Shown here: piece by piece, positions 10,204-38,363 of the stretch
How the letters are laid out: the number at the start of each line of letters is the position of its first letter
How positions within the stretch are numbered: position 1 is the stretch's first letter
Assembly (NCBI GenBank): GCA_028282585.1
Contig: JANQHR010000062.1
Location: 6,916-70,915 of the forward strand
Direction of reading: 5' to 3'
DNA from: Bacteroidales bacterium
Lineage (GTDB): Bacteria; Bacteroidota; Bacteroidia; Bacteroidales; UBA12077
Length of the DNA stretch: 64,000 nucleotides
Translations under genes and position numbers: made by a program
The notes under the pieces: generated by a model
Database searches by the model: none
Told to the model about the DNA's origin: nothing
The model's input: only the letters and a program-made list of their open reading frames with translations

Positions 10204-10318
10204 GTTGTAATTTGATTTAATTATAATTTAGGATTCCTAACAAAAATAGCAAAATATTTAAAAAATCAATACGTTAACAATGGTTTTGTTTTTTATTTTT
10301 TTGTTAATATATCGATAA

Positions 10319-15814: not shown

Positions 15815-18544
15815 TTTCCTTTTCTTCATTAAAAAAAATAATACTCCTATCATACTAATTATGTAAATCAATCTCTTTAGGTACCAATTTTTATATAATT
15901 CCTTTTGGTTGCCATTTATTACAATTCCTGCCCAAAAACGCGGATGAGCAGATATCGGGTCGGTCTGTTCAAGATATCTTAATTTAGCAAGCCTTAAGGC
16001 TTCATCTTTTCGCATTCCTTTTAGCAGATTCAGGTAAAAAGAATTTAATATGTTATTTGTTGCTTTTTGGGGTGCTAACCATAACGACATAACTATCGAT
16101 TCGCTTCCGGCATACATGAAACTCCGGCTTAGGCTCAAAACACCTTCTCCTTTGGATAGTTTCCCACCCCCGGAATAACACGATGCTAAAACGACAAGTT
16201 TAGCATTTATTTGCAAGTTATATACTTCCCAGGCGTGAAGGTAGCTGTCATTTAAAGAATCATCCGGTTCGGATAAAATTAACTTCGAATTGGCAGGGTT
16301 GAGCGTATCTTCAAAACCATGCGCATAAAGTTGTATAACATCGTATTTGTTAGAGTATTCCTTAAATTTCTGTTCTGTTGCTTTTTCTCCTGTTAAGGAT
16401 TTTCCTAACATTAATAATGCAATCTTCCTTACGCTTTTTAATCCTAATGGCATATGTATTAAGGAATCTTTCGAGTTTTCGTAACCGGGTGCAATTCCCA
16501 AAAATTTGAATCTGTTATTTTGTAATGCGGTTAAACTGTTTTTATATAATGTAGCAGAATATGCATAAGCTATCGGGTATTTCTTTAATAAAAATGGTTC
16601 TTCGCGGTAATAAAGTTCATCAACACTCTTATAGGGTTTATCAACAAGTACGTCAAATGAAATAAAGTTCATTTTATCATCCGGAATTATCAGCAGGTTT
16701 TTGTTTTGCAATAAAGGTTCTACAGGGAAAATAAGCTTCTTATAAAGATTATATGCCGAATTTCTGTATAAACGATAGTTGGATGTATGGTCCCGGTGCA
16801 AAACGGTTTTGTAGAAATCAAGGCTGGAATGAAATACACTGTCGGTGTCCTGTTTTAATAGTAAAAATGTATCCTGCGTAACAACAAAAGTATAAAGTGA
16901 ACTATCTCCTAATACATACTCCAGAATAGCTTCTTTTTTATCGATGGACTGTTGCAGTTGATTGATACTGACAATTTCCTGATTGTATTTTTGCTTATAA
17001 TATTCAGGGTAACCGGATTCAAGTTTTTCAACCAGGTTTTCGAGCTCTTGTGTTAAACTAAATATTTTTTCGTTCCATTTGTCTATTTTTACCCTATCAG
17101 GAGTTTCCTGTTTGCTTTCTTCTTCCATTTGCATCCTGATACTGCCAATTTGCTCTTTTAACCTTCGCTCATAATTTCCTAAACTGTCGGGCACTCCTGC
17201 AATCCCCCGCGCTGCCTCTTCATTTTTCAGTTCCCTTAAAACAGCATATTTGCTAAGTTCTGCGTACTTAAATGCAATTTCGGCATATTTACCATCACCG
17301 TTAATTTCATACAAAGAATTGGCAATGTTTATTATCGACAGGTATATATCGTGTTCTTGTGATGCGAGTTGTAATTTTGAACTTTCGTACAAATATCCCG
17401 TTCGTAACTGTTCAATAAAACCAACCGTGAGCTCTAAGGTAGAAAGAGCTGTTTTTAGATTAATTTCTTTATCTTCAAGTTCTGCTAACTTTTCAAAGGC
17501 TTGTGCTTTTGCTTTTAAAATATCAATTAAATCTAGGTCGGGAAATACATCCGGCCACGGGTTTACATAAATGGAACGATCATTGAAATCATATATTTTG
17601 GAAATTAATGATTGCTGGTAATAGTGTAGTGCTTGTTTGTAATTCTCCTTCTTGTAATGTAATTGCCCTAAGTTTTGTACACATAAAGACGTGTATGGAT
17701 GTTTTTCGCCAAGCATTTTAATTAAGATTTTATGAGCTTTCTGGTAAAGCTGTTCACTTTTTGAAAAATATCCTGTTTCAGAATAAAAAACAGCATAATT
17801 AACATAAGCCATTGCGGTCATGTAATGCTTTTCTCCGAACTCTTTTTTATATGATTCAATAGCCTTTTTAAAATAAATATTTGCTTTATCCAAGCTGTCA
17901 AGGTTTTGATAAATTAATCCACAATTATAATATGCATTCCCAGCAATTTTAATTTGGTTTTTTTTAGCAATCTGTATACTTTGCAAACTTTTTTTTAAAG
18001 CGAGATTCATTTGCCCAGATTTATAATAGGTGTATCCCTGATTAAGATAATTATTTACAATCCAATGGTATTTATTTACCTTGTCACTTTTTTTAAGTAT
18101 TGATAGTGAACTTTCATAATAAAAGATAGCCTTTGAGTAATCTCCTGTTAAAGAATAAATCATGGCAATGTTTCCATTAATAACTGATAAAATGTAATCA
18201 TCATCGGTAAATTCCAGTGCCTTATTATAATAATTAATTGCTTTAGATAAATTACCCTGCCTTTTAAATATCACCCCTAACCTATTAAAAACTTTGTAGT
18301 AAGCAGGCTGTATATCATTAGGCATTTCACCTTTTAACAAAAGAATTTCATTTAAACCATCAATAGCTCCGTTATAATCCCCTGACTGATATAGAACTTT
18401 TGTACTATCATAAAGCTTGGTAAGATAATTTTTATCAGTAAGTTGTTGTGCTCCTAACTTTGATACACTAAGGAATGTATTGATCAACAATAAAATAATT
18501 AGTTTGAAAATCAAGGAATTAAATTGTTGTTTAAAAGAATTCAT
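15794..18544 (-). CDS. TPR-repeat CHAT-domain protein (caspase-fold Cys protease), predicted extracytoplasmic with a C-terminal membrane anchor
   Basis: 916 aa. N-terminal signal-like segment (LIFKLIILLLINTFLSVSKLGAQQ) and many TPR units (GDYxxAIxYYxxAL pattern). The C-terminal CHAT domain has a candidate His-Cys dyad: LYAHG (His742, nt 16319-16321) and VLASCYSGGG (Cys789, nt 16178-16180). Terminal hydrophobic helix LIYIISMIGVLFFLM. Confidence 0.85.
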   Translation of the reverse strand: MNSFKQQFNSLIFKLIILLLINTFLSVSKLGAQQLTDKNYLTKLYDSTKVLYQSGDYNGAIDGLNEILLLKGEMPNDIQPAYYKVFNRLGVIFKRQGNLSKAINYYNKALEFTDDDYILSVINGNIAMIYSLTGDYSKAIFYYESSLSILKKSDKVNKYHWIVNNYLNQGYTYYKSGQMNLALKKSLQSIQIAKKNQIKIAGNAYYNCGLIYQNLDSLDKANIYFKKAIESYKKEFGEKHYMTAMAYVNYAVFYSETGYFSKSEQLYQKAHKILIKMLGEKHPYTSLCVQNLGQLHYKKENYKQALHYYQQSLISKIYDFNDRSIYVNPWPDVFPDLDLIDILKAKAQAFEKLAELEDKEINLKTALSTLELTVGFIEQLRTGYLYESSKLQLASQEHDIYLSIINIANSLYEINGDGKYAEIAFKYAELSKYAVLRELKNEEAARGIAGVPDSLGNYERRLKEQIGSIRMQMEEESKQETPDRVKIDKWNEKIFSLTQELENLVEKLESGYPEYYKQKYNQEIVSINQLQQSIDKKEAILEYVLGDSSLYTFVVTQDTFLLLKQDTDSVFHSSLDFYKTVLHRDHTSNYRLYRNSAYNLYKKLIFPVEPLLQNKNLLIIPDDKMNFISFDVLVDKPYKSVDELYYREEPFLLKKYPIAYAYSATLYKNSLTALQNNRFKFLGIAPGYENSKDSLIHMPLGLKSVRKIALLMLGKSLTGEKATEQKFKEYSNKYDVIQLYAHGFEDTLNPANSKLILSEPDDSLNDSYLHAWEVYNLQINAKLVVLASCYSGGGKLSKGEGVLSLSRSFMYAGSESIVMSLWLAPQKATNNILNSFYLNLLKGMRKDEALRLAKLRYLEQTDPISAHPRFWAGIVINGNQKELYKNWYLKRLIYIISMIGVLFFLMKKRKSIAKLF

Positions 18545-22607: not shown

Positions 22608-24908
22608 TTAAAATAGGTCAACAGAAATATTTTGGATAAAGGCGGTATAAGTAACTTCATTTTCCAAGATGGCTCTTGATAGAATAATAATTACGGGAAT
22701 ATCTTCTCCTTCACTATCCGTAATTTCTATTTCTCTGCGCTCTCCTACTAGTTTATCGGCCTTTGGATCAAGAAATGATTTAGTAAACTCATTATTATAA
22801 TCGGCTTTAGAAAACAATTTTTTTATGTTTCTACCTAATACAACATCACGCTCCAATTTCCAGAGCTCTTCAGCAGCCTTATTAAAGAACTTAACTACAC
22901 CATTTTGATCAATAGTTATAATTGCATCTGCAGCTCCTTCAAGAGTTCTCTCATTACGTAATTTTGCTTGTTCTACTTCTCGAATTTGTTTTTCGGCTTG
23001 AATCTTATTTTGTTTTAATTGCTCTTTTAATTCAGCTCTTGATTTATTTAATTCTCCCTCTTGTTTTTTAAGAAGTTCTGTTTGCTTAAGAGTCTCCATT
23101 TCCATTAGTTTTTCCTTGGTTTCGTCATAACCAATAAAAATCACTTTAGAAATATCATCATACATATCGCGCACCGGCGATAAATTTAATTTTAACCAAA
23201 GGCTTTTATCTTCTTTTGTTCTATGTCTTAATGTACCTTCCCAAGATTCACCCAATGAAACTCTTTCCCAAATTTCACGAAGCTTATTCAAATCTGACTT
23301 ATCAATAAAATCAAAAATTGTTTTTTCTTTTAGCTCGTAAAGAGAAAACTCCATAAGGTCTACAAACTTATTATTACATTCCATTAGATCGCCTGTTGGA
23401 AGAAACTCAACCTTTATACTCGATTGATTTAACGCATTTATTTGTGCTTCATGATCAAGACTAACCTTACGCTGCTCTGTAGTATCAATAGCTAAAAACA
23501 AAATCTTTTCAACGCTTCCATCTTCTCTTCTCATACAAGTATAGGTAGACATTGTCCATAAATCATGTCCCTGTTTGGTTACGTGTTTCATGAATCCTTC
23601 GAAGTGTTTTCCTCCATTTGCAAGGCTATTCCAAAGCTTATTAAACCAATTTCTATCTTTCTCATTTATAAACATCTGGATGTTTTTTCCTTCTACATCC
23701 GAGTTGCTCTCATAACCAAGTTTTTTCAAAAATTTGGTGTTTGCATAAATCAGTGTACCATCATTTTCGTATTCCGCTCTTATTAATGTATGGTTCACTG
23801 CATTTGTGAAAGTTATAAATTTTTCACTTTGTCGGGCAGCTTCTTCTTGCGTAGCTTGCAACTCTTCCATATTTTGCCGCATTTGTTCTTCTTGCGCAGC
23901 AAGTATTTCTGCTTGTTCCTGAGAATCCTTTAAGAGCTTTGCAGTCTTTGTATTAATTTTTACGTTAGAAATTGTTGATCCAATGCTCTCAGCAATCTTC
24001 TCGACAAAATCAACAGTAAATCTTTCTATATTATGAAAGGCACCTATTTCAAGAACACCATGTACCTCATCATTAAATTTCAATGGCACAACCAGTAAAC
24101 AAGTAGGAGTAGCTTCACCTAGTCCCGATGTAATGTGGACATAAGTACTCGGTATGTCTGTCATGTATATTGTTTCTTGCTCCAATATCGCTGCTCCTAT
24201 GGCTCCCTCGCCCCATTCGACTCTTTTATCTGCGAATTTTCTTCTTTCGTAAGCATAACAAGCCGTCATTCTCATATGTTTATCTGCTTCATTTTCATCT
24301 TCAATAATAAATAAAGCACCCTGATTTGCATTTATATATTTTATAAGATTACTTATCAGGTTATATGAAAGTTCTTCAAGATTATCCGTATCTTTTCGTA
24401 AAATCTCACCAAATTTTGCCAATCCTTCTGCAATCCAATTTCTTTGGTTATCTTCGTTACGCCTTTTTTCTTCTTCATCGCGATTCTTTTTTAAATTATC
24501 TCTCAGATCAAGAATTGATTGCCCTAATACGTCGTCTGCTCCTTGAACCTTATAATCGGCATCAATATTACCTAAACGTATTTTTTCGACAAATCGAAAT
24601 ATCTTTTGGTTTTTGTCGAATTCTTTTTTTAAAGAAGAATGTAAAGCCTCTGAAGCTGTTGCGTATTTTTTACTTAAAACATATGCATAAAACGCAAGCA
24701 CAAATGGTGCTAAATCTAAAATTAAGTATACCGGATTATTACGGTGTAGTTCAGCAATCTCAGAAAAACTTACTTTTTTTATAAAAAAATCTACAATTAA
24801 TATAAATAATACCGTTAATAATCCAACAACAAATCCGCTAATTGTATATTTAAAGATTATTGCTTGAGAGTTTCTTTCCTTCATTGATTGCTTTAAATTT
24901 ATAGGCAA
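22608..24908 (-). CDS. Membrane-anchored GAF + multi-PAS sensor protein with no output domain
   Basis: 766 aa. Two N-terminal TM helices, a GAF-like region (...GALFIIEDE...LLVVPLKFNDEVHGVLEIGAF), a Gln/Glu-rich coiled coil, then about three PAS-like repeats. It ends right after the last PAS. Confidence 0.8.
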   Translation of the reverse strand: MPINLKQSMKERNSQAIIFKYTISGFVVGLLTVLFILIVDFFIKKVSFSEIAELHRNNPVYLILDLAPFVLAFYAYVLSKKYATASEALHSSLKKEFDKNQKIFRFVEKIRLGNIDADYKVQGADDVLGQSILDLRDNLKKNRDEEEKRRNEDNQRNWIAEGLAKFGEILRKDTDNLEELSYNLISNLIKYINANQGALFIIEDENEADKHMRMTACYAYERRKFADKRVEWGEGAIGAAILEQETIYMTDIPSTYVHITSGLGEATPTCLLVVPLKFNDEVHGVLEIGAFHNIERFTVDFVEKIAESIGSTISNVKINTKTAKLLKDSQEQAEILAAQEEQMRQNMEELQATQEEAARQSEKFITFTNAVNHTLIRAEYENDGTLIYANTKFLKKLGYESNSDVEGKNIQMFINEKDRNWFNKLWNSLANGGKHFEGFMKHVTKQGHDLWTMSTYTCMRREDGSVEKILFLAIDTTEQRKVSLDHEAQINALNQSSIKVEFLPTGDLMECNNKFVDLMEFSLYELKEKTIFDFIDKSDLNKLREIWERVSLGESWEGTLRHRTKEDKSLWLKLNLSPVRDMYDDISKVIFIGYDETKEKLMEMETLKQTELLKKQEGELNKSRAELKEQLKQNKIQAEKQIREVEQAKLRNERTLEGAADAIITIDQNGVVKFFNKAAEELWKLERDVVLGRNIKKLFSKADYNNEFTKSFLDPKADKLVGERREIEITDSEGEDIPVIIILSRAILENEVTYTAFIQNISVDLF

Positions 24909-25003: not shown

Positions 25004-26080
25004 TTAATTAACAGTTTCAAGAAGGTAAACCGAAATTTTTTCTAATGGTAATACTTTATCCGCTGCCTCAAGTTTTATCGCTTCTTTGGGCATACCAAAA
25101 ACAATAGAAGTTTCCTGATCTTGAGCAATCGTTTTAGCTCCTGCTTGCTTCATTTCAAGCAATCCCCTGGCTCCATCATCTCCCATACCTGTCATAATTA
25201 TTCCAATTGCATTAGCACCAGCATATTTCGCTGTTGAACGAAACAATACATCAACCGAAGGGCGATGGCGATTAACAAATGGCCCGCTTTTTACTTCAAC
25301 ATAATATCTTGCACCGCTTCGTTTAACCATAGTATGAAAATTTCCAGGTGCAATTAAAGCTCTGCCTCTGATAATCGAATCTCCGTTTTCGGCCTCTTTT
25401 ACAGTAATTTGGCAGATTTCATTTAATCTATTTGCAAATGATTTGGTAAATTGTTCGGGCATATGTTGCACCATAACAATTCCCGGGCAATCGGCGGGTA
25501 AACCCTGCAAGAAAGTAGTTATGGCTTCTGTACCTCCTGTTGATGCTCCAACTGCTACCACAACTTCAGTTGTTTTTATCATACTGTGTTTACTGGTTGG
25601 AGGAATTATTACGTCAGCTGAATATTTGGGAACTACTTTTATTGATTGTGGTTTGTTAGTTTTACGTCGAATTTTAGCATGAGCAGCACCTTTAACAGCT
25701 TCACAAATTCTAATTTTTGATTCCCGAATAAATTCCTTAGTTGATAAAAAAGGTTTTGTTATAATTTCAACAGCACCATACTCAAGTGCTTTAAATCCGG
25801 TCTCCGTTCCTTCTCCCGTTAAACTTGAAATAACAACTACTGGCATTGGGTGTTGGCTCATAATCTTTTGCAAGAAAGTTAAACCATCCATTCGTGGCAT
25901 TTCTATATCGAGCGTAATTACATCCGGAATCTCTTGTTTTATTTTTTTTGCAGCAACAAAAGGATCTGAGGCCGTGCCCATAACTTCAAGCTCAGGATCA
26001 GAATTAATAATTTCCGTAAGATTTTGACGAACTACAGCAGAATCGTCCACAATTAAAACTCTGATCTTCTTTTTATCCAT
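25004..26080 (-). CDS. cheB: Chemotaxis response regulator protein-glutamate methylesterase CheB
   Basis: 358 aa. Receiver domain (RVLIVDDS...[14 protein letters not shown]) plus methylesterase domain (GASTGG, HMP, GMGDDG). Confidence 0.95.
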
Positions 26081-26126: not shown

Positions 26127-26609
26127 TTACTTTTTTATTTTCTTAATTTCTCTTTTTACATATCGTTGTTTGATTTCTCCGGAAACTGTATTCATAATAA
26201 TCTTTCGCCCATATTTTCCTCCAACACTCGAGCTAACAATAGGAATTCTCAATTCTTCCAAGGTTTCATGTGCCAATTTAATATTTCTTTCTCCTATTTG
26301 AAAATATTGAGTTTCCGTATCTAAAACTTCACCGCCACCAAAAACTTTAGCAACGATATGGTTCTTTTTGGAGCCAAAAGAAATTATTTTATCCAGTAAT
26401 TTTTCTATTGCTATGTTTCCATATTTTGGAGATGCTAATCCTTCTCCATTCCATAGCGGTAACATATAATGTGACATTCCTCCATACTTTAAGATAGGGT
26501 CCCACATACATACAGCCACACACGAACCTAAAATCGTACTTATGTTATAAGGCTCTTTTGATGCAAAAATTGCAGAAGGATATAAGAAATAAGAAGAAGT
26601 ATTTTCCAT
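26127..26609 (-). CDS. cheD: Chemoreceptor glutamine deamidase CheD
   Basis: 160 aa with the characteristic LGSCVAV catalytic-Cys motif and a GGxxHxMLP region. Confidence 0.9.
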   Translation of the reverse strand: MENTSSYFLYPSAIFASKEPYNISTILGSCVAVCMWDPILKYGGMSHYMLPLWNGEGLASPKYGNIAIEKLLDKIISFGSKKNHIVAKVFGGGEVLDTETQYFQIGERNIKLAHETLEELRIPIVSSSVGGKYGRKIIMNTVSGEIKQRYVKREIKKIKK

Positions 26610-26618
26610 AAAAATTAT

Positions 26619-27527
26619 TTAAAATGTTTCTTTTTCGCCTTCATCATCTTCAAAGAATAGCTCATTACCATCTAATGCAAATCCTTGAGTATCAATTTCT
26701 GATTCGGGAATTGTAACGGTGAATTCAGAACCTTTATCAAGTTCACTTTCAAGTTCAATTTTACCATCAAAAAGATCAATCAGCGCTTTATTCACTGATA
26801 ATCCTAATCCGTGCCCTCTATTTAATGAGTTAATTCCTGAATCAAGTCTTTTAAACCGATCAAAAATGATTTTTTTATTCTCTTCAGATACACCGCAACC
26901 AAAATCTTTTACTGAAATCATTAAGCTTTTATCCACAATCCAAACTTTTAAAATTATCCTGCTTTCATCATCACTAAATTTAATCGCATTAAATAACAGA
27001 TTTGCAATTATTAATCTCAACTTTTCAGCATCTGTTTTAAAATAAAAAGGATTTTCAATGGAAGATTCTATTTTAAAATCTAGTTCAACTTTAATATTCT
27101 TCTTATCTGACTCATAAGTAAATGATTCAACAATACTTTCAACTAATTGTAAGATATCTACATTTAGCACCTCCGGTAAAACTTCTCCAGCTTCCAGTTT
27201 TGCTGCAACAAATATGTTTCTTAACTGAAAATCCAGATTAAATGCTTCTGAATAAATTAACGTAACCATTTTATGCACTTCACTCCAATTTTGTTTCCCA
27301 ACTTTTATAATGTTTTTTGACAATGCCAAAATAGATGCAAAAGGGTTTATAATCTCGTTGGTAATATTTGAGATAAAATGACTTTTTAGGGCTTCAGATT
27401 CTTCGAGTTTTTTATTAACTTCTTTCAGTTCTTTATTGAGTTGTTGAACTTCCAAAAGAGCTTTTTTTGTTTTATCGAAGCGCTTCATTAGTTCTTCGAT
27501 TAGTTCGTGATCTTTTAATTCGCTCAT
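26619..27527 (-). CDS. Soluble histidine-kinase-like protein (HisKA-like + HATPase_c) lacking the canonical phospho-acceptor His
   Basis: 302 aa. The H-box position reads KSHFISNITNEIINPF where kinases have KSxFLANMSHELRTPL, giving Asn57 (nt 27357-27359) in place of His. The N box (NLLFNAIKF), G1 (DFGCGV) and G2 (GHGLGLS) are intact. Confidence 0.8.
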   Translation of the reverse strand: MSELKDHELIEELMKRFDKTKKALLEVQQLNKELKEVNKKLEESEALKSHFISNITNEIINPFASILALSKNIIKVGKQNWSEVHKMVTLIYSEAFNLDFQLRNIFVAAKLEAGEVLPEVLNVDILQLVESIVESFTYESDKKNIKVELDFKIESSIENPFYFKTDAEKLRLIIANLLFNAIKFSDDESRIILKVWIVDKSLMISVKDFGCGVSEENKKIIFDRFKRLDSGINSLNRGHGLGLSVNKALIDLFDGKIELESELDKGSEFTVTIPESEIDTQGFALDGNELFFEDDEGEKETF

Positions 27528-27537
27528 AGTTTTTTAT

Positions 27538-28392
27538 TTAATTTCTTACGAAAATTGTGGGTTTTATTTGCTTTAAAGGTAAATTCATTCCTAAAATAGA
27601 TTCCGAATGTCCGATAAATAAATATCCTCCTGATTTTAATTTTTGACACAATCTATTTAATACCATTTCCTGGGTTTCTCTGTTAAAATAGATCAAAACA
27701 TTTCGACAAAATATCACATCAAAAACATCTGCAACATTATATGATGAATCCATAAAATTTAAACGTTGATATCTTATCTTATCTCTTAATAATTTAACAA
27801 CACGAACAGTTTTGTTGTCTTTATTTTTACTTTTTAAGAAATACCTTTTTTTAATGTTCAGAGGAATTACATTAATCCTATCTTCTTTATAAATTGCTGT
27901 ATTAGCCTGTTGAAGTATTTTTGTTGAAATATCAGTACCTAAAATATCATAATCGAAACCGGAATATTCATATTTAAATTCGTTCAAGGTAATTGCAATT
28001 GTATAAGGTTCTTCACCACTTGAACAACCTGCACTCCAGGCTTTAAAAATGGCTCTTCTTTCCTTTTCTATGAAATCAGGTAAGATTTTATTTCTGAGAA
28101 AATCAAAATGAACCGGTTCTCTGTAAAAATCTGTTTTGTTTGTACTAACAGCATCGAGCATATGAACGATTTCATTTTTTTGTCCCTCATCACTAAAAAC
28201 AAAATCGGCATATTCCTTAAAACTAAGTATTTCTAATTCTCTTAATCGTTTTTGTAAACGACTTTGCAACATAATCTTTTTAATGGGAGGCATTTTAATT
28301 CCCGATTGTTGAAAAACAAATCTACTCAGACGATTAAAATCATCATCTGTCATTCGTGCATTAAAAATTTTATTTAATAAAGGATCCACCAT
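27538..28392 (-). CDS. cheR: Chemotaxis protein methyltransferase CheR
   Basis: 284 aa. FFRE-type region (TDFYREPVHF) and a SAM-binding motif (AWSAGCSSGEEPYTIA). Confidence 0.95.
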   Translation of the reverse strand: MVDPLLNKIFNARMTDDDFNRLSRFVFQQSGIKMPPIKKIMLQSRLQKRLRELEILSFKEYADFVFSDEGQKNEIVHMLDAVSTNKTDFYREPVHFDFLRNKILPDFIEKERRAIFKAWSAGCSSGEEPYTIAITLNEFKYEYSGFDYDILGTDISTKILQQANTAIYKEDRINVIPLNIKKRYFLKSKNKDNKTVRVVKLLRDKIRYQRLNFMDSSYNVADVFDVIFCRNVLIYFNRETQEMVLNRLCQKLKSGGYLFIGHSESILGMNLPLKQIKPTIFVRN

Positions 28393-28649: not shown

Positions 28650-30671
28650 TCAAAAATTTTCGTAATCACCATTTATCTTTTTATCATTCATTTGCATATC
28701 AATACCAGCCGTTCTGTTATTACTTACCTTAACCTCTATTTTAGTTTCTTTAGGCTTATTTTCAGATGTCTTAAATTCTTTCTTCTTCTCCTCTATTTTG
28801 AAATAAGATATGTTTTGCTTAAGTTGTTCTGCCTGGCTTGCAAGTTCTTCTGAACTTGTTGCTAACTCTTCTGAAGACGCAGCATTTTGCTGTGTCACCT
28901 GATTAAGTTGTTGAATTGCACTATTTACTTGATCTGCTCCGGAATTTTGCTTTAAACTTGCCAAAGAGATTTCTTGAATAAATTTAACCGTTTTTTCAAT
29001 TTCAGGTACGATATCCAGCAACTGCTTTCCTGCCTCTTCTGAGATCTTTACTCCTTCCCGGGACAACTGATCAATTTCGTCAGCTGCTACTTTACTGCGT
29101 TCTGCAAGCTTTCGAACTTCGTTAGCAACAACTGCAAAACCTTTACCATGTTCTCCTGCCCGAGCTGCTTCCACAGCTGCATTTAATGCCAGAATATTTG
29201 TTTGAAAAGCAATATCATTAACAATTGTAATTTTTTCAGCAATTTTTTTCATTGCATTCATTGAAACTTCGGACGATGAGCTTCCCTTTTTAATACCTTC
29301 AGCAGTTTTTACGACAATTTGCTCGGTTTGCTGTGCATTTTTATTATTTTGCTGTGTATTTGAAACCATTTCTTGCATTGATGAAGAAACTTCTTCTGCT
29401 GAAGATGCTTGTTGATTTGCTCCTAGAGACATTTGTTGAGCGTTTGAACTCATTTCGTGGCTTGCAGAATTTATATTTTCTGCACTAATATTTACGCTTA
29501 CAACTATCTCCCTTAATTTCAATACCATTTGATTTAATGCATTTGCCAGGTCACCTATTTCATCTTTTTGTTTTATATCGAATGTAGCTACTAAATCGCC
29601 ACCTGCAACGTTTTGAGCAAAGATTACACCCTTTTTAAGGGCTGTTGTTATAGTTCTACTAATTAAAGAAACTATTACTGCTAATATTATAAGGCCAATT
29701 ACACCAATAAATATTGAAATTCTGAAATTTCTATTTGCCTTTGCCATAATCTCTGAAACTGGTACTGAAATTGCAAGGGACCATGGAGTGTTCGTTTTCC
29801 CAACATAAACTGGTGTGTATGTTACAAAATTCTCTTTACCATTTTTATCAACACCTATATAATTGAAACTTTCTCCGTTTCTTATTTGTTGAATAATATT
29901 TTGGTTTTTAACATCTTCTACATATATTTCCTGTATATGTTTACTTAAAAAATCTTTATTAGGATGTCCCGCTATTAATCCACCATTTGAAACCAAATAA
30001 GCAAAACTGCCTGTATAAGGATTAATCTCTTGTATTAATTTTTGGAAACTTTCCAAGGTAATATCTATAGCCACAATTCCAATGTATCTTCCGTTATCTA
30101 ATATGGGAGCATTAATACTTGTCATAAGAAATTTTTCTGCCTTATTTTCGGCAAAAACATCCTCATAAGGTTCCCAAATAGAGGGTTTAGTTCGCTTTTT
30201 TATCTCTGCATATAACTCAGGATCACCATCTAAACTTCTAAGTTCTGTGTTACTTTTTATCAAACCATTTTCTCTCCAATATATAATTACATACCTACCG
30301 GTTGGCTGATTCCATTCCGGGTCTATAGCGTTTAGTTCCCAGCTATCCCATAAACTATATATGTGAGGATTACTTGAGAATATTTCCTCGTACATTTTAG
30401 TAAATAACTCTTTCCATTGGTCTGTTGGTAAATATTTGTACGTTCTATATGCTTCAGCTAAAGTTTTAACTATTGATAAATCTGCATCAAGTTGGGCTTT
30501 TATATCTTTAGAAACTTCTTTTGCATAACTATTTGTTTTGTCAATAGCATCTTTATACGCTGATTTACGAGCATTAAGGCTAATATAACCCAAAGCTGAT
30601 ATGTATATAATTATTGAAACTCCTATAATAAACAATTGAACCTTTTGTTGAATTTTTAAATTTACCCTCAT
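28650..30671 (-). CDS. Methyl-accepting chemotaxis protein, double-Cache-type sensor
   Basis: 673 aa. TM1, a ~290-aa periplasmic Cache-like domain, TM2, HAMP, and an MCP signalling domain with the conserved hairpin ([37 protein letters not shown]). The C-terminus is ...GDYENF. Confidence 0.95.
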
Positions 30672-30755
30672 AGTAATTCACTTTTTAAGGTTAATCCATA
30701 TTGTTTCACATAATTGTTACATTTCACATTCTTATTGAACGTACACAATTAAAAA

Positions 30756-32798
30756 TCAGAAGCTTTCGTATTGATTATCAATCTTTTTATCATTCATATG
30801 CAAATCAATACCGGTCGTTTTATCATTGCTTGCTGTAACGTCTATTTTAGTTTCTTTTGGCTTGTTTTCAGATATCTTAAATTTTTTCTTCTTCTCTCCT
30901 ATTTTAAAATAGGATATGTTTTGCTTAAGTTGTTCTGCCTGGCCTGCAAGTTCCTCTGAACTAGTTGCTAATTCTTCAGAAGCTGCAGCATTTTGTTGAG
31001 TAACCTGATTCAACTGCTGAATTGCGCTATTTACCTGATCTGAACCGGAATTTTGCTCTAAACTTGCGGCAGAAATTTCTTGAACCAGTTTTGCTGTTTT
31101 ATCAATTTCAGGAGTAATCTCTTCCATTCGCTTTGCTACCTCTTCATTTACGGTTACACTTGATTTTGATAATACGTCTATTTCATCAGCTGCTACTTTA
31201 CTTCGTTCTGCGAGTTTTCGAACTTCGTTAGCAACTACAGCAAAGCCTTTTCCATGTTCACCAGCACGAGCTGCCTCTACTGCAGCATTTAACGCTAAAA
31301 TATTAGTTTGGAAAGCTATATCATTTATAATTGATATTTTTTCAGCAATATTGTTAATCGATTTTCTGTTTTCCTGAGCTGCATGCATAACTGCTATCAT
31401 GCCTTCTGCAGCTTTTATAGATATCTTTTCTGTTTGTTGAGCGTTATCCGTATTCTGTTGAATATTTGAAGCCATCTCTTCCATCGAAGAAGAAACTTCC
31501 TCTGCAGAAGATGCCTGCTCACTTGCTCCTTGAGACATTTGTTGAGAATTTGAACTCATTTCCAAACTGGCGCCTGCAATATTGTCAGCGCTCGTTTCAA
31601 CACTTTCAACAATTTCCTGAAGTTTAATAACCATTGAATTTAATGAATTTGCAAGCACTCCTACCTCATCTTCCTGGTCAATATCAATAGTTGCTGTCAA
31701 ATCACCTTCAGAAACTCTTTGTGCAAACTCAACGCCCTTATTTATAGCTTTCGCTACATTTCTAACAACACTGGTAACTATGAAAATAAATATTAATACT
31801 GCAATAACAACTGATGCAAAGACTGTTAATCTTAAGCTCCTTAAATATTTAAAAAGAATCTCTTCATAAAAAGATGCAACTACATATGAATCTATTTCAG
31901 GTATATATTCAAAATATTGAAATTTCCACTTGCCTTCATCCGTTTCGGGCCATTTATATCTTGATTTACCTTTCCTATCCTCATTGGCTTTAATCTGTTT
32001 ATAAAAAGTAAATTCAGTACCTTCCTTACCTTCGTCTGTTGGGTGAACAATAAAAGTACCATCAGCACTAATTAAAAATGGGTAACCTGTTTCAAAATAA
32101 ATTTTATTATCGAAAACCCCTTTTAAACTAATTAAATTTTTTTCCTTTATACCTACATATAATATTCCTTGTACTTCTCCATTAATCCAAATTGGTTCAT
32201 AAGCCGTAAGATAATAATCATCAACAACAAAAGCTCTACCTCTGTATGTTTGCCCTGATTCAACTGCCTGAATTACAGGTGAATTGTTTGGGATATAAGT
32301 ACCAATAGCTCTTTCTCCATTTTCTTTTAATACATTTGTTGATATTCTTAAATATCCACCAGGGATTTTCTGAAATATGGTAGAAGTAGCACCTGTCATC
32401 TCTTGTACCTTATCAACAAAGGAATAATTATTGTAGATTCTTTCACCTCCAATTATAAAGTCTTTGATTGTAATTTGTGTAGCATGTTTAGATATTTGAT
32501 TTATCGCAGTAACCTGAGAAAATGTATCTTCCATAGAAGGCTCACCTAAGCCCTGAAACATTTCATGTGCCGTTTTTAAAGCATAATTTACTCTATTTTG
32601 CCTTTCATTCAACTGAACTTTAATAATGCTAACTAAATCACCAAGTTGTTCATACATTCTTATATCCGCATCTTCAGTGATTCTAGTTTTAGTATCTTTA
32701 TAAGTTAAAATACCAAGTGTAGAGATCACAATAACAGTTGCTAAACCTAATATAAGGTTTAGTCGAAGCCCTATTTTTAAATTGTTTAATGATTTCAT
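30756..32798 (-). CDS. Methyl-accepting chemotaxis protein, Cache_3/Cache_2-type sensor
   Basis: 680 aa with the same membrane topology but a different periplasmic domain (...[19 protein letters not shown]...RAIGTYI...). The HAMP and signalling domains are nearly identical to the neighbouring MCP. The C-terminus is ...NQYESF. Confidence 0.95.
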
Positions 32799-32849: not shown

Positions 32850-33365
32850 TTACTCTTTGTTTTCTATCTTTTTTTCTCCTTCCTGAGTTTTTTCTTTAAC
32901 AAGTACAACTTCATCTACCGAGAATACTTTATCCATATCTAAAAGCATAATAAATTTCTCGTCTATCTTTGCCATTCCATAAATAAAATCCGATTTATAT
33001 TTGCTTCCGATACCCGGAGATGGCTGAATTTGATTATCAGCAATTTCAAGAACCGCCTGAACCGAATCAACCAGGGCTCCAACCTGTACCTCATCGCCCT
33101 CGATATTTACTTCCATTACTATTATACATGTGTTAGTGGTATATTCGGTAGGTGTCATACCGAATTTTATTCTTGTATCAACTACTGGTAAAACCGTACC
33201 TCTAAGATTGATAACTCCTTTCATATATTCTGGCGATTTCGGAACTTCTGTAATTTTTGTCATCTCTAAAATATTGAGAACTTTACTTACGTGAGCAGCA
33301 AATTCTTCCTCGCCTAAATTAAATGATAGGAAAGAGTTAACTTTTTCTATTGTTTCTTTACTCAT
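32850..33365 (-). CDS. cheW: Chemotaxis coupling protein CheW
   Basis: 171 aa single CheW-like domain (...GVINLRGTVLPVVD.R..FG...). Confidence 0.9.
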   Translation of the reverse strand: MSKETIEKVNSFLSFNLGEEEFAAHVSKVLNILEMTKITEVPKSPEYMKGVINLRGTVLPVVDTRIKFGMTPTEYTTNTCIIVMEVNIEGDEVQVGALVDSVQAVLEIADNQIQPSPGIGSKYKSDFIYGMAKIDEKFIMLLDMDKVFSVDEVVLVKEKTQEGEKKIENKE

Positions 33366-33374
33366 AATTGTCTC

Positions 33375-35438
33375 CTATTTTGATTCTGTTTTTAGATTAT
33401 CTTTTGAAAATTGTAATATCATTTTGTTAGTATCCATTACCAATGCGACTGTCCCATCACCAAGAATTGTAGCACCCGAGATAATCTCCTGATTTTTAAA
33501 CAATTTACCTAGTGCCTTTAAAACAGCTTGATATTCTCCAACTACTTCATCCACAACAATTCCTATTTTTTTGTCTTCATAACTTACAACAATTATTTGT
33601 TCATGCTCTTCTTTATTATTAGGAAGATTAAATTCTTCCCGTAAATAATAAAACGGAATTCGTTCTCCATCAAGAACAATTAAGTTATTAAATTTATTTA
33701 CTACACTTTCCTGGTCGGTAGAATATATTTTGCCAACAACAGAAAGTGGAATAATATAATGGTTATCGGAAATTTTAACTAGTAAGCCATCGATAATGGA
33801 TAATGTTAGTGGTAATTTTATTGTAATTGTAGTACCTTCATTAATTTCTGAATCAACTTCAACTTCACCCCTAACTTCAGCAAGTTTTCGTTTAACTACA
33901 TCCATACCAACCCCTCTGCCTGATACATCAGTTACGTTCTTGGCCGTAGAAAAACCAGGTTCAAATAATAGGTCAAAAATTTCCTTACGGGATAATTCTG
34001 CATCTTTACTTATTAAGCCTTTTTCAACTCCCTTTAATCTTATTTTTTCCGGATCAATTCCGGCACCATCATCTTTAATTTTTATATGAACATTAGTTCC
34101 TGAATAGTATGCTTTTAAAAGAATCGTACCTTGTTCGGGTTTACCTGATTTAATTCTTTCATCAGGTGACTCAATACCATGATCAATACAATTTCTTAAA
34201 ATATGTAATAACGGATCAGTTAATGTTTCGATAATGGTTTTATCTAATTCTGTTTCTGCACCTTCTGCTATAAATTTTACACTTTTATTTAATTCATTCG
34301 AAAGGTCTCGAACTAATCTTTGAAAACGGGTTAACATCGTTTCGATTGGAACTAAAACAATATCAAACGCATTATCTCTTAATTGTCGGGTTATTTTTTG
34401 CACATTTTCCGCTATAGAAACCAGTTCCGAACTTCCTGAGTTTTCAGCATATAGGCTTAAGCGGGCCTGCGTAGTTACAAGTTCACTTACCAGGTTCATC
34501 AAATTGTCCAGTTTTATAGATGAAACCCGAATACTTGATATAATATTTTCCTTTACACTAGGCGCATTTGTAAATCTTTTACTAACATCATCTACTTGCT
34601 CGTCTGATATTTTTTGCTCAGCATATTTCTTAATGATCGTTTGAATTTCTAATAACCCAACATCGTTTTTAGATAAAGCAAGATTTGATATTTCTTGCAT
34701 AATATTTTCGTTTTGAACGATATTATGATCAACAATCTCGTTAATCTCAAGCTTACAATCATCTTCAACAAAAATGAAAACATCTGATATTGAATTTACG
34801 TCTTCTGAAGTTGCCAAAATAGCTTCCCAGTATACATAACATCTGGTTATATCAATATTTTCAGAATCAGGCACTTTATTAAAATGAGAAAACACTTTAC
34901 AATCACCTAACCCATGTAATTCATCAATTAAGAACAATGGGTTCGTACCATCATTAAAAATATAATCGTTGGGCTCGAAATATATATAATAACTCCGTAT
35001 CCCGGAAGATTCTTTTTCATACTCCCCTTTTTCTTCCCGAATATTATTTTTATTGTCGTCGTCAATTATTTTTTTGATTTGCACAACCAGTTCGGTGTGT
35101 CTGTTTTTTGTCTGTTGCGAACTTAAATCAGGATCAGATAAAAGAGTTTTAAGATGATCAACAGATGCTAACGTAACATCAAGTAAATTTCTTGTGATTT
35201 TTAATTTACCATTTCGGACTAAATCATAAATATTTTCCAAATCATGCGTGAATTCACTTAATTTGGCAAATCCAAACATGGCACCACCACCTTTAAGTGA
35301 ATGCATATCCCTGAAAACACTCTCAATAATTTCTTTATTTTCCGCATCATTCTCTAAAGCAAGAAGAGATTGTTCAAGGTTTTCAGTCTTTTCAGCTGCC
35401 TCTTCAAGAAATTTACTTCGAAATTTATCTATATTCAT
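33375..35438 (-). CDS. cheA: Chemotaxis histidine kinase CheA
   Basis: 687 aa. Hpt domain (FRDMHSLKGGGAMFGF), dimerisation region, HATPase (HILRNCIDHGIE, DDGAGID, GRGVGMDVV) and a C-terminal CheW-like domain. Confidence 0.95.
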   Translation of the reverse strand: MNIDKFRSKFLEEAAEKTENLEQSLLALENDAENKEIIESVFRDMHSLKGGGAMFGFAKLSEFTHDLENIYDLVRNGKLKITRNLLDVTLASVDHLKTLLSDPDLSSQQTKNRHTELVVQIKKIIDDDNKNNIREEKGEYEKESSGIRSYYIYFEPNDYIFNDGTNPLFLIDELHGLGDCKVFSHFNKVPDSENIDITRCYVYWEAILATSEDVNSISDVFIFVEDDCKLEINEIVDHNIVQNENIMQEISNLALSKNDVGLLEIQTIIKKYAEQKISDEQVDDVSKRFTNAPSVKENIISSIRVSSIKLDNLMNLVSELVTTQARLSLYAENSGSSELVSIAENVQKITRQLRDNAFDIVLVPIETMLTRFQRLVRDLSNELNKSVKFIAEGAETELDKTIIETLTDPLLHILRNCIDHGIESPDERIKSGKPEQGTILLKAYYSGTNVHIKIKDDGAGIDPEKIRLKGVEKGLISKDAELSRKEIFDLLFEPGFSTAKNVTDVSGRGVGMDVVKRKLAEVRGEVEVDSEINEGTTITIKLPLTLSIIDGLLVKISDNHYIIPLSVVGKIYSTDQESVVNKFNNLIVLDGERIPFYYLREEFNLPNNKEEHEQIIVVSYEDKKIGIVVDEVVGEYQAVLKALGKLFKNQEIISGATILGDGTVALVMDTNKMILQFSKDNLKTESK

Positions 35439-35803
35439 TATCTTAATACTTTTTTAAGTGCTGCAATTAGTTTGGCAGGTACAAATGGTTTAATAATCCA
35501 TCCGGTTGCTCCAGCTTCCTTGGCTTCCATTTTTTTAGAAGCCTGAGACTCAGTAGTAAGAAATAAGATTGGAATTCGCTTATATTGATCCGTTGCGCGA
35601 ACGCTTTTTATAAACTCAATACCATTCATTTCAGGCATGTGAAGGTCGGTTATTATTAAATCGATATGTGAACCGTCCAGAAATTTTAAAGCGTCTTTTC
35701 CATCCACTCCGACTAATACATCGTAACCCTCATTTTTAAGAGTGAAGCTTACAACTTCACGTATACTTTCTGAGTCATCGACAATTAAGATAGTTTTACT
35801 CAT
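35438..35803 (-). CDS. cheY: Chemotaxis response regulator CheY
   Basis: 121 aa single receiver domain (ILIVDDS, DLIITDLHMPEMNG, T at LTTES, K at IIKPF). The stop overlaps the cheA start by 1 nt. Confidence 0.9.
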   Translation of the reverse strand: MSKTILIVDDSESIREVVSFTLKNEGYDVLVGVDGKDALKFLDGSHIDLIITDLHMPEMNGIEFIKSVRATDQYKRIPILFLTTESQASKKMEAKEAGATGWIIKPFVPAKLIAALKKVLR

Positions 35804-35816
35804 AATAATATCAATA

Positions 35817-36134
35817 TTATTTAATTATTTTTGTAATATCTGAATTACTGAACAGAACATTCTGTTCTTCATTTAAATCAATGTTTAAAATCAAATTCTT
35901 TTTAGTTTTTTCAGCAGTTTTTTGAATTGATTTTATCAACTGAACAAAGGTTAAATCCATATTCTTTATTGACTTTCCAATAATTTCGATAGTTTCGTAT
36001 TTGTTTACTGCATTTATTATATCATTTTTAATATCCTCAATTGAATATATGGTAAGCTCATCAATTAAATTGATTTCTACTTTACTTTCTCCTTTTTTTC
36101 TTGAGGGTTTAATCTGAATTTTCTTTGTACTCAT
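35817..36134 (-). CDS. Small STAS-like domain protein (anti-sigma-antagonist fold)
   Basis: 105 aa. The pattern L.G.LTI..I..IK..I.......IEI.......MDLTFVQLI...QK.A......L.L resembles STAS/SpoIIAA. Assigned by eye only. Confidence 0.5.
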   Translation of the reverse strand: MSTKKIQIKPSRKKGESKVEINLIDELTIYSIEDIKNDIINAVNKYETIEIIGKSIKNMDLTFVQLIKSIQKTAEKTKKNLILNIDLNEEQNVLFSNSDITKIIK

Positions 36135-36146
36135 AAGATCGTTATT

Positions 36147-37961
36147 TTAGAAAAACTCTATTTCATCATCTTCTTTAATATCAAAATCTATTTCAGCTTC
36201 TTCTCCTTTAGCAACTTTGTCATGAATGTTATGCTCCGTTTCCATGGTATAATATTGCTTAATATTTTCCAGATTCTCTTCTCTTGAAATTCCGTCAAGC
36301 TCCTTATTTAACTTAAGTTTATAATTCACTGTATTTAACTCTGTAATAATTTCCTGAATTACCTTTTCGAAATACTCATAGTATTTAATTCTTGAAATAG
36401 AATTTTTAATATTTTTAATTACTACTTTGCTATCGTTGTTATTATTTTGTAGAAGCGTTTCAATCTCATTCCCGGAAGCTTTCAACAAGTCAATTTGAGT
36501 TCTTAGTTCTGAAAAATTAGTTTCACTCAATAAACCTTGATCTGTTTTATTTACAAATCCTTCAATATTATCTTTTAATGTAAACAAATAGTCGTATAAT
36601 GAATTAAGTTTTTGTGAATTATCTTTTGTTTCTTTCAGCAAATTAATGAATTGGCTATTTGCCTTTTTTAGGTTTGAATCACTATTAAAAAGTTCCTCAA
36701 AATATTTTTTTGATTCGTTCAGCAATTCTTCTAACTTAAAAGATGATTTTCTAAAGTTTTCAATAATGTTCTCTGACTGAAGGTACTTATCGTGAATATT
36801 ATTTAGTTCTGCATCAAGAATCTTAGTTTGATGGTTATAATTGTCGATAAATAAGTTTGCTTTATTAATATAAGAATCAATTCGTTCAAACATTCTATTA
36901 TAGTTAACTTTTCCGTATGAATAAACTCTTTGAGACTTATATGTAATTTCCTGGATATTATCTCCGATTAGAATAAAATTATCAATAATAACCTCTATTG
37001 CGGATTGATACTCTTTATTTGCCTGTATTAACTGTGCAGCTTGTAATCCGGAAATATCTCGTATTCTTAAAAAACATTTTACTTTTTCATTTAGTTTATT
37101 TGCTTCTAAATTGGTTTCATTAAACTCAACAAGTTCCTTAATTAGATCTTTATGCGTATTCTGGATATGCTCCATCTTTTGTTTTATAATGTCCTGATAT
37201 TGAAGCTTTTTTACTATTTCCGTGTTACTATTTTCTAAACTTCCTATTTTTTCTTTTATATTAGGAATTAAGTTTTTGTTATCCTCATTTTTTTTATCGA
37301 TCAGTTCAATGCTTGATTGAATTTCTTTTAATAAGCTTTCAAGATTTACTTCATGTAATCCATTTAAATCCTTAATTCTTTTGTAAGAACTTTTAGCAAT
37401 TTTACTTAACTGATTAAATGAGTTAATAATATTATCGGTAATAAGCTTAATACTTTCAATTAACTTTTCGGTTTGCAAATAAATATTTTCCAAATATTCG
37501 TTTTCTGATCCTTTGCTATATGAAAGGGATACTTTTAAATTTGCAATTAAGTAATTTAAGCTCATTAAATTTTGGCTATAACTTTTGATTGGGAAAAAAA
37601 TATGTCTTATATGATTAGATAACTTCTCTAACTGATCAGATATAACAACGATTCTATAATCCAGAACTTCAAACTGGATCTTCAATTTTTCGTATAGCTC
37701 ATTAATTATTTGATAAAGATTATTGTTTTTATTAATATTTGAAGTATTACAAACTACTCCAACATTATTAGTTATTCGGTTAGACTGGCTATAAATTTCT
37801 TTATAACTTTTGTTCAACTGCAAAAAATCCTCTGCTGACTTATTATGTAATGATATTAATCTCTTATCTATTTTTGTAAATAGATCTGTAATATCCTTAA
37901 CCGAATAAGTTTTCAGCAGTGAATTTAGATGTATAGTAAATTCTTCTTCTCGTTCAGACAT
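36147..37961 (-). CDS. 604-aa soluble coiled-coil protein of the che operon with a CheZ-like [FY]QDxxxQ motif
   Basis: Long N/K/E/L-rich helical protein with no TM segment. Contains KKLQYQDIIKQKMEHIQ (Asp257, Gln261; nt 37161-37206) and an acidic C-terminal tail ...EEAEIDFDIKEDDEIEFF. Confidence 0.6.
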   Translation of the reverse strand: MSEREEEFTIHLNSLLKTYSVKDITDLFTKIDKRLISLHNKSAEDFLQLNKSYKEIYSQSNRITNNVGVVCNTSNINKNNNLYQIINELYEKLKIQFEVLDYRIVVISDQLEKLSNHIRHIFFPIKSYSQNLMSLNYLIANLKVSLSYSKGSENEYLENIYLQTEKLIESIKLITDNIINSFNQLSKIAKSSYKRIKDLNGLHEVNLESLLKEIQSSIELIDKKNEDNKNLIPNIKEKIGSLENSNTEIVKKLQYQDIIKQKMEHIQNTHKDLIKELVEFNETNLEANKLNEKVKCFLRIRDISGLQAAQLIQANKEYQSAIEVIIDNFILIGDNIQEITYKSQRVYSYGKVNYNRMFERIDSYINKANLFIDNYNHQTKILDAELNNIHDKYLQSENIIENFRKSSFKLEELLNESKKYFEELFNSDSNLKKANSQFINLLKETKDNSQKLNSLYDYLFTLKDNIEGFVNKTDQGLLSETNFSELRTQIDLLKASGNEIETLLQNNNNDSKVVIKNIKNSISRIKYYEYFEKVIQEIITELNTVNYKLKLNKELDGISREENLENIKQYYTMETEHNIHDKVAKGEEAEIDFDIKEDDEIEFF

Positions 37962-37982
37962 GTTAATTCAAATAAAGAAATA

Positions 37983-38363
37983 TTATGCTTTTATTGTTAA
38001 CGCATTACCTATTTTCTCAAGAAATTCCGGAATATTAATAGGTTTTTCAATCACATCAATAGCTCCTAATTCTTTTGCCATCAATCTATTTTCTTTATTG
38101 GCAAAAGCTGTAACAATAATTATAGGTATATCTTTAAAAATTCCATTTGACTTTAGTCTTTTCAATAAATCAAATCCGTTTTCATTCGGCATAAGCAGAT
38201 CTAACAAAATTAGATTAGGAATGCTTCTTGTTAAAGAAACAAGTGCCTCTTTAGCACTATAAGCCTTTTCTACATTACATCCAGCATCTTCCAGAATAGC
38301 CTCTAACAAAACCAAATTAGTTTCTGAATCATCCACAATAAGTATGTTATTTCCTTTTATCAT
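37983..38363 (-). CDS. Single-domain response regulator (receiver only), first gene of the che operon
   Basis: 126 aa (ILIVDDSE, LILLDLLMPNENG, IIVTA, EKP). Confidence 0.9.
   Translation of the reverse strand: MIKGNNILIVDDSETNLVLLEAILEDAGCNVEKAYSAKEALVSLTRSIPNLILLDLLMPNENGFDLLKRLKSNGIFKDIPIIIVTAFANKENRLMAKELGAIDVIEKPINIPEFLEKIGNALTIKA

Follow-up and report, generated by a model that had tools for sequence, protein, structure and literature searches.

A histidine-kinase-like gene in a chemosensory operon

The DNA considered here is a stretch of 64,000 nucleotides (the window) from contig JANQHR010000062.1 of a Bacteroidales bacterium (assembly GCA_028282585.1), and our subject is a gene within it that encodes a histidine-kinase-like protein, hereafter HKL. 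The gene (26619..27527) starts with ATG and specifies 302 amino acids without a transmembrane or sensor domain, as judged from the list of open reading frames (ORFs), the sequence itself, Pfam and full-length homologues; the ORF is genuine, as homologues match it end to end over the 302 residues. It belongs to a chemosensory (che) operon with the order receiver, 604-residue protein, STAS-like protein, cheY, cheA, cheW, two chemoreceptors, cheR, HKL, cheD, cheB and a GAF/PAS gene, all on the minus strand, to which the coordinates of the operon features given below refer. The immediate neighbours of the HKL gene are cheR (27538..28392; Pfam CheR_N and CheR), 10 bp upstream, and cheD (26127..26609; Pfam CheD, E = 3.5e-26), 9 bp downstream. 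A first-pass annotation, prepared from the letters of the sequence alone, had described a che operon and three stand-alone receivers, and these are indeed present.

Comparison of HKL with Pfam yielded a strong match to HATPase_c (E = 9e-23, residues 166-276) and two sub-threshold ones, to HisKA (PF00512; 12.5 bits, E = 0.15, gathering cut-off 26.9) and to HATPase_c_2 (17.1 bits, E = 0.006, cut-off 27.4). No CheC or CheX match was obtained up to E = 1, and neither Pfam nor the structural model, in which one continuous helix runs from residue 6, revealed a HAMP, PAS, sensor or transmembrane segment. NCBIfam contains no family dedicated to the protein, and the matches it returns, to many sensor kinases, are all generic and lie far below threshold. 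The nearest solved structure, as identified by phmmer against PDB, is that of Thermotoga HK853 (E = 4e-27).

The AlphaFold model of HKL (input of 44 homologues; predicted local distance difference test, pLDDT, 74) consists of a helix spanning residues 6-75, a second helix at 81-112, an alpha/beta ATP-binding (CA) domain and a disordered region from residue 285. The helices make up a DHp-type hairpin (residues 6-112; 27192..27512), in which an N-terminal stalk is continuous with helix 1 and is followed by helix 2. The top Foldseek matches of the model are HK853-RR468 complexes (E = 1e-19), and the pseudokinase DivL is matched with a template modelling (TM) score of 0.86; at the level of sequence, DivL (E = 1.3e-15) is no better a match than ordinary kinases. 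Of the features that mark a functional HisKA kinase, HKL has the DHp hairpin and the GHKL ATP-binding domain, complete with its N, G1, F and G2 boxes.

Asparagine at the phospho-acceptor position

What sets HKL apart is its degenerate H-box, KSHFISNITNEIINPF (residues 48-63; 27339..27386), a stretch better conserved than any other part of the protein. The first-pass annotation proposed that Asn57 (codon AAC, 27357..27359) occupies the place of the phospho-acceptor His, and alignments to kinases bear this out. In the phmmer alignment, ITNEIINPF of HKL pairs with ISHELRTPL of HK853, which brings Asn57 opposite H260. BLASTP alignments to four kinase modules of an unrelated 2017-residue protein put the same residue opposite the His of NVSHELRTP, NVSHEFRTP, VVSHDLRNP and MASHELRTP. 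Five independent kinase alignments thus agree on Asn57 as the residue at the acceptor site. The register check against a hidden Markov model that had been suggested at the outset is compatible with this, the 12.5-bit HisKA match beginning at HKL residue 48 and model position 2. The motifs originally quoted (the H-box given above, NLLFNAIKF, DFGCGV and GHGLGLS) all occur in the sequence, the ATP-lid boxes are intact and the Asn57 codon lies where it was said to lie. Because Asn stands in place of His at the acceptor site, HKL is predicted to be unable to autophosphorylate at the canonical position.

The family to which HKL belongs provides the context. We assembled an alignment of 489 sequences of 250-400 amino acids with 37-95% identity to HKL, gathered by whole-protein similarity without use of the motif. 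They come from Bacteroidota, a Chlorobi-labelled metagenome-assembled genome (MAG), Nitrospirota and Magnetococcales. Asn is present at position 57 in 488 of the 489, as the first-pass annotation's proposed check of orthologues required to be known, and the residues around it are hardly less constant: Glu58 is kept in 483, Asn61 (codon 27345..27347, the His+4 position) in 484, and Pro62 and Phe51 in all 489. The E-x-x-N motif is therefore retained, as had been noted from the single sequence. Among database proteins, the 120 closest to HKL, which have 62-95% identity and come for the most part from Bacteroidales MAGs, all read H-F-[ILV]-S-N-I-T-N-E-I-x-N-P.

A separate search of 1.84 billion cluster representatives, from which the best 150 matches were taken, gave the same picture. 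All but one of these are proteins of 212-317 amino acids with 37-56% identity to HKL, the exception being the 2017-residue multi-module kinase mentioned above; Asn57 is found in 147 of 148, Glu58 in 142, Asn61 in 146 and Pro62 in 148, and no His-bearing kinase of comparable size occurs among the best 150. Searches started from distant members add sequences from the Chlorobi-labelled MAG, Cytophagaceae, Nitrospirota and Magnetococcales, with Asn at the site in all of them; the Nitrospirota carriers include the magnetotactic Ca. Magnetobacterium, Ca. Magnetominusculus and Ca. Magnetomonas. The set formed by Asn57, Glu58, the +4 Asn and the +5 Pro has become fixed in no fewer than four named lineages. 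Cultured carriers of the gene are Anaerophaga thermohalophila DSM 12881 and Perlabentimonas gracilis.

Column entropy is lowest, at 0.79 bits, in the block of residues 51-60, followed by helix-2 residues 101-110 (1.06 bits) and residues 61-70 (1.11 bits), while the ATP-binding boxes range between 1.4 and 1.7 bits. With an entropy lower than anywhere else in the protein, the H-box has the mark of a site in use and not of one in decay. As far as the aligned sequences tell, the His-to-Asn change in the HKL family is natural, ancient and fixed, and a chance mutation is excluded. The loss of the acceptor His and the sub-threshold HisKA score could be taken as signs of a decaying, pseudogene-like relic with no function of its own. 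However, some 490 proteins of four named lineages have an unbroken reading frame, the H-box is their best-conserved part and the gene keeps a constant position beside cheD (see below). These conservation data refute the relic explanation, to which we assign a practically negligible probability. HKL is best described as a kinase-dead protein, soluble and presumably dimeric, that descends from a HisKA-type histidine kinase.

In public records, homologues of HKL (e.g. P0018, P0022 and P0024) are labelled ‘HAMP domain-containing (sensor) histidine kinase’. This label is contradicted by our domain analysis, which predicts neither a HAMP domain nor a sensor or membrane segment, nor an acceptor His. 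Hundreds of mislabelled HKL entries make two-component kinases seem more numerous than they are in Bacteroidota, Nitrospirota and Magnetococcales.

Could HKL be a kinase with another acceptor?

An active kinase might in principle have moved its acceptor elsewhere, either in cis to His50 (codon CAT, 27378..27380), as the first-pass annotation suggested as an alternative, or to a Ser/Thr residue of another protein, for example the STAS protein of the operon, in a partner-switching arrangement of the SpoIIAB/RsbW type. The ATP-binding boxes of the HKL in the window are fully canonical, which speaks for such a kinase. His50 lies exactly seven residues N-terminal of Asn57, i.e. two helical turns above it on the same face, and is invariant in the Bacteroidales clade and in the 120 closest homologues. 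In the family as a whole, however, His is present at this position in only 289 of 489 sequences; roughly 40% of the wider family have Asn, Gln, Asp or Ser instead, and Asn is found in 85 of 111 sequences of the Nitrospirota/Magnetococcales type. The residue that follows is Phe51, without exception among the 489. Mutagenesis of four HisKA kinases demonstrated that an acid at His+1 is strictly needed for autophosphorylation (PMC3510030). Because His50 is not conserved outside the Bacteroidales clade and is followed by Phe where a kinase needs an acid, it is unlikely to serve as the acceptor and we reject it in this role; none of the alignments made places it at the acceptor position. The family has no other conserved His column that could take over, the best being H239 in the G2 box (103 of 150 representatives).

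As regards a serine kinase acting on the STAS protein, the idea draws on the STAS-like gene in the operon and on the weak HATPase_c_2 match. The latter falls well short of its cut-off, and SpoIIAB-type kinases are not known to have a DHp hairpin, which HKL possesses. No STAS gene is found near the HKL-cheD pairs of Nitrospirota and Magnetococcales, and K183 and R227, two presumed phosphate-contacting residues, vary in the family. Furthermore, STAS-only proteins of che clusters already have a role as CheS, which binds CheA (PMC12654446). A kinase with a different acceptor, of either kind, is thus very unlikely.

Constant pairing with cheD

The genomic surroundings of the gene were compared in 91 fetched loci, in which Che genes were located by tblastn; 80 genome loci among them had been retrieved via the Asn-containing motif, which makes them informative for synteny and uninformative for the conservation of Asn. 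In all 88 loci where the contig continues, cheD lies directly downstream of the HKL gene, at distances of 6-129 bp, and the active-site Cys and His motifs of CheD are intact in 87 of the 88. The CheD protein of the window can be aligned to that of T. maritima from the CheC-CheD complex (2F9Z). On the other side, cheR is the upstream neighbour in 84 of the 91 loci.

The rest of the operon is less faithful to HKL. Downstream of a member with 37% identity come cheD, cheB and a TPR-cyclase gene. Two Nitrospirota, Ca. Magnetominusculus and Ca. Magnetomonas, carry the pair outside any che operon, in the arrangement dnaA-dnaN-HKL-cheD-gyrB-gyrA; HKL and cheD overlap by 7 nt in the former. In a Magnetococcales contig the HKL-cheD pair is flanked by unrelated genes. 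The constant partner of HKL is cheD, whereas the operon as a whole is not constant. The position of HKL-cheD within a replication-origin block (10001-11367 in locus L089, 2459-3845 in L093) is an odd one for chemotaxis genes.

Several variations on the arrangement deserve mention. A single-domain receiver gene is inserted between cheR and HKL in the Chlorobi-labelled MAG (L091, 7984-8376) and in one Bacteroidales MAG (L060), a possible clue to the receiver partner of HKL. Local duplications were encountered in three loci: cheR-HKL-cheD occurs twice in L053, Anaerophaga thermohalophila (L087) has two cheD hits and L088 contains a second cheR-cheB-GAF/PAS set. The 105-kb contig JBKHIH010000004.1 (L005 / L011), labelled ‘Thiohalospira sp.’ (a gammaproteobacterium), carries a Bacteroidales-type operon with an HKL 69% identical to that of the window, and is probably mis-binned.

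Neither the window nor any of ten annotated neighbourhoods contains a CheC, CheX or CheZ domain. The known phosphatases of CheY~P are CheZ and members of the CheC/CheX/FliY family, and many chemosensory clusters bearing cheD have none of CheZ, CheC, CheX and FliY; what CheD does where CheC is missing is poorly understood. A kinase-dead HisKA protein that constantly accompanies cheD is a concrete candidate for the missing CheD partner.

The nucleotide pocket and the C-terminal tail

The CA domain (residues 121-276; 26700..27167) includes the N-box at 26973-27014, the G1 box DFGCG at 26892-26906 and the G2 box GHGLGLS at 26796-26816. The residues N176, N180, G210, G212, F225, G238, G240 and G242 are each kept in at least 474 of the 489 family sequences, and D208 in 468; the Asn residues that bind Mg and the glycine lids are almost without variation. 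K183 and R227, which align with K383 and R430 of HK853, residues we take to contact the ATP phosphates, vary in the wider family and are canonical in the HKL of the window. The pattern fits a pocket in which nucleotide binding may be under selection with the phosphotransfer chemistry relaxed, and it is only an indication of this.

The protein ends in a disordered acidic tail (residues 282-302; 26622..26684; pLDDT below 50 for residues 285-302) characterized by the motif G-N-E-[LF]-[FLI]-F and a terminal Glu-x-Phe. F292 is kept in 471 of 489 sequences and the terminal Phe in 432, and the tail is probably a tether to a partner protein. The chemoreceptors of the window end in the pentapeptide-like sequences DYENF and QYESF. 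Of 58 receptors in related loci, 40 have the ending x-[WFY]-x-x-F and several more end in Tyr. The final E-x-F is common to the HKL tail and the receptors; the tail, however, has no aromatic residue at position -4, and the resemblance is partial. The tail may be a copy of the receptor pentapeptide, but we treat it as an unassigned docking peptide. The signs that the CheR of the window is of the pentapeptide type are mixed: no gap interrupts its alignment with Salmonella CheR across the beta-subdomain loop, a region in which V. cholerae CheR1 is gapped, yet the Gly of the G-x-x insertion is missing.

In sum, the analysis added to the first-pass annotation a large multi-phylum family, cheD as a constant partner and a conserved acidic Glu-x-Phe tail.

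A putative phosphatase-state pseudokinase working with CheD

Because it is always encoded directly upstream of cheD, HKL is probably a hitherto undescribed accessory protein of chemotaxis-type signalling, with a CheY~P phosphatase or sensor as the most likely role. As to what it does, we consider it about an even chance (a probability of roughly 0.5) that HKL is a kinase-dead HisKA protein in the phosphatase state that docks CheY~P (or CheB~P), hydrolyses it via Asn61 and forms a functional pair with CheD. According to this scenario, the hairpin would still dock a receiver in its phosphorylated form; the pathway's own CheY is the most likely one, and CheB a possible one. Asn61 would position the hydrolytic water, so that HKL would remove or read out receiver phosphorylation in the manner of a histidine kinase locked in its phosphatase state, and the nucleotide bound by the intact CA domain would act as a cofactor or conformational switch, not as a phosphodonor. 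HKL and CheD would then make a functional pair comparable to CheC-CheD, coupling the level of CheY~P to the action of CheD on receptors, and HKL would supply the phosphatase that is otherwise absent from gene clusters devoid of CheC, CheX and CheZ.

The phosphatase-competent motif of HisKA proteins is E/D-x-x-T/N, and Asn61 of HKL is found at its His+4 position. The Asn or Thr at this position is needed for the phosphatase activity only, and the acid at His+1 for the kinase activity only (PMC3510030). Removal of the acceptor His need not abolish the former: CrdS H371A retains most of its phosphatase activity, CrdA~P having a half-life of 2.6 min in its presence, compared with 0.7 min with the wild type and 53.5 min without enzyme (PMC3510030), and NRII-H139N has the phosphatase function only (bioRxiv 10.1101/122606). 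With regard to the partnership with CheD, CheC dephosphorylates CheY~P and also binds CheD, the binding is strengthened by CheY~P, and the CheD-binding site of CheC resembles the deamidation site of receptors (PMC3513319). Among the functions listed in the first-pass annotation, a dedicated phosphatase thus appears the best supported, given the precedents in PMC3510030 and of NRII-H139N, whereas nothing speaks specifically for a phosphate-sink regulator.

Several points weigh against the phosphatase scenario. The near-invariance of Glu58 would be left unexplained by a pure phosphatase model, because the acid at His+1 is dispensable for the phosphatase activity of HisKA proteins, and the same model would not account for position 57 being strictly Asn and no other amino acid. 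Retention of E-x-x-T/N would in itself be no proof of phosphatase activity; DivL keeps this motif and acts as a phospho-receiver sensor. K183 is Lys in 291 and Glu in 157 of the 489 sequences, and R227 is Gln in 223 and Arg in 218; because these residues vary, the handling of nucleotides may differ between HKL clades. The contact between HKL and CheD is inferred from gene order only, and both the phosphatase role and the choice of receiver are putative for every member of the family. Finally, PleC H610A loses its phosphatase activity along with the kinase activity, so the His is sometimes needed (PMC3510030).

The main rival explanation is that HKL is a non-catalytic sensor or scaffold of the DivL type, one that binds CheY~P without hydrolysing it and, through a conformational change possibly linked to the nucleotide state, controls CheD (by sequestering or releasing it) or some other enzyme of the Che system. 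The best structural matches of the HKL model include DivL (TM score 0.86), which is described as a histidine kinase repurposed to sense a receiver's phosphorylation state (PMC4211667). CheC's binding to CheD outweighs its phosphatase activity in B. subtilis (PMC3513319), and both the constant adjacency to cheD and the conserved tail suit a binding role. On the other hand, the near-invariance of Asn61, a catalytic residue specific to the phosphatase reaction, and the strictness of Asn57 seem more than binding would demand, and HKL lacks the PAS sensor domains of DivL. We entertain this alternative tentatively, as a possible though not the favoured explanation. Should either the phosphatase or the sensor explanation be true, HKL would represent a case from nature, and an ancient one, of a histidine kinase locked into acting as a phosphatase or sensor.

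A more specific and more speculative proposal assigns a purpose to the invariant residues themselves. The Asn-bearing helix of the H-box might be the meeting site of two signals: it would dock CheY~P and, in addition, offer its strictly invariant Asn-Glu pair to CheD, an amidohydrolase, either as a pseudo-substrate resembling the receptors or even as a true substrate (Asn57 being converted to Asp), so that CheY~P occupancy and the nucleotide state would together set the availability of CheD at the receptors. We regard this as unlikely; if true, it would make HKL a structurally new class of chemotaxis phosphatase and adaptation protein, a histidine-kinase-derived counterpart of CheC in several phyla. 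A segment of HKL mimicking the receptors in the form of the CheD substrate motif A/S-x-x-Q/E-Q/E-x-x-A/S was also sought, and rejected: a scan of 150 representatives found no conserved match, with at most 2 sequences matching at any position.

Other genes of the operon and its surroundings

Downstream of cheD lies cheB (25004..26080), encoding a receiver and a methylesterase domain according to Pfam. Upstream of cheR are two Cache/HAMP chemoreceptor genes (28650..32798; individually 28650-30671 and 30756-32798), recognized from their ORF translations and, for the first receptor, by Pfam. They are preceded by cheW, cheA and cheY (32850..35803; Pfam), the last (35438-35803) encoding a 121-residue receiver and being the presumed source of the phospho-receiver for HKL. 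The head of the operon (35817..38363) is formed by a receiver gene (37983-38363), a gene for a conserved and apparently helical 604-residue protein without a Pfam match (36147-37961) and one for a STAS-like protein of 105 residues (35817-36134).

The order receiver, 604-residue protein, STAS, cheY and cheA is common to many Bacteroidales loci and the Chlorobi-labelled MAG, and the 604-residue protein may be an output or input of the chemosensory pathway. Pfam does not recognize the STAS-like protein of the window, though orthologues encoded at the equivalent place give weak STAS hits and keep the gene order. The STAS-only protein CheS of Sinorhizobium, likewise encoded in che clusters, binds CheA (PMC12654446), and the 105-residue protein of the window fits such an identity.

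The gene following cheB (22608-24908, minus strand) encodes a 766-residue protein with an N-terminal hydrophobic region, a GAF domain, three PAS domains and no recognizable output domain; the same is seen in most related loci. Divergent from the che operon (38560-39614, plus strand) are a Crp/Fnr-type regulator and the third stand-alone receiver, an arrangement that recurs in several related loci. Farther away, and unrelated to HKL, the window encodes a 916-residue protein with TPR and CHAT (caspase-like) domains (15794-18544, minus strand), before which, on the opposite strand, there are a gene for an extracytoplasmic function (ECF) sigma factor (12580-13152) and three more ORFs, one of which has TPR repeats while Pfam does not match the other two.

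Comparison with known systems

We found no publication on a CheD-linked histidine kinase lacking the acceptor His in the full-text literature, in which subscription journals are thinly covered, so that an earlier description is possible. A histidine-kinase gene ‘K’, which may or may not belong to the HKL family, does appear among the gene orders of five F classes in a figure legend of PMC9239204; no source mentions a missing His or a connection with CheD. The F7 stage-1 order STAS-cheY-cheA-cheW-receptor-cheR-cheD-cheB (PMC7184735) is that of the window, save for the insertion of HKL between cheR and cheD. Receptors with C-terminal pentapeptides, seen in the window, are a feature reported for F8 clusters (PMC11253619).

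Among characterized histidine kinases, HKL resembles HK853, EnvZ and CrdS in their phosphatase state, with which it has in common the DHp and CA fold; it retains an E-x-x-N motif with Asn at His+4, the phosphatase-specific position. It also resembles NRII/NtrB H139N, where the replacement of His by Asn is the exact change that makes NRII phosphatase-only, the difference being that this change was engineered in NRII and is natural and fixed in HKL. Unlike HK853, EnvZ, CrdS and NRII, however, HKL has no sensor, transmembrane or HAMP module and no DNA-binding response regulator as a partner, is encoded beside cheD and carries an acidic tail ending in Phe.

DivL of Caulobacter offers a second parallel, in that the acceptor His has been replaced and the fold kept; it reads the phosphorylation state of a single-domain receiver and does not phosphorylate. 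The replacing residue is Tyr in DivL and Asn in HKL, and there is no specific sequence relationship between the two. DivL is a long, membrane-anchored protein with PAS domains. It functions in cell-cycle control with CckA, whereas HKL is encoded beside cheD and, in the window, within a chemosensory cluster.

The third comparison is with CheC (Bacillus, Thermotoga), CheX and FliY. HKL differs from them in lacking any sequence or fold kinship, in having an E-x-x-N that is the HisKA motif, in its ATP-binding domain and in the absence of a conserved CheD pseudo-substrate segment. What it does share with CheC and its relatives is that it is encoded with cheD and has E-x-x-N on a helix, and the logic proposed for it is the same: a phosphatase or binder of CheY~P combined with a receptor deamidase.

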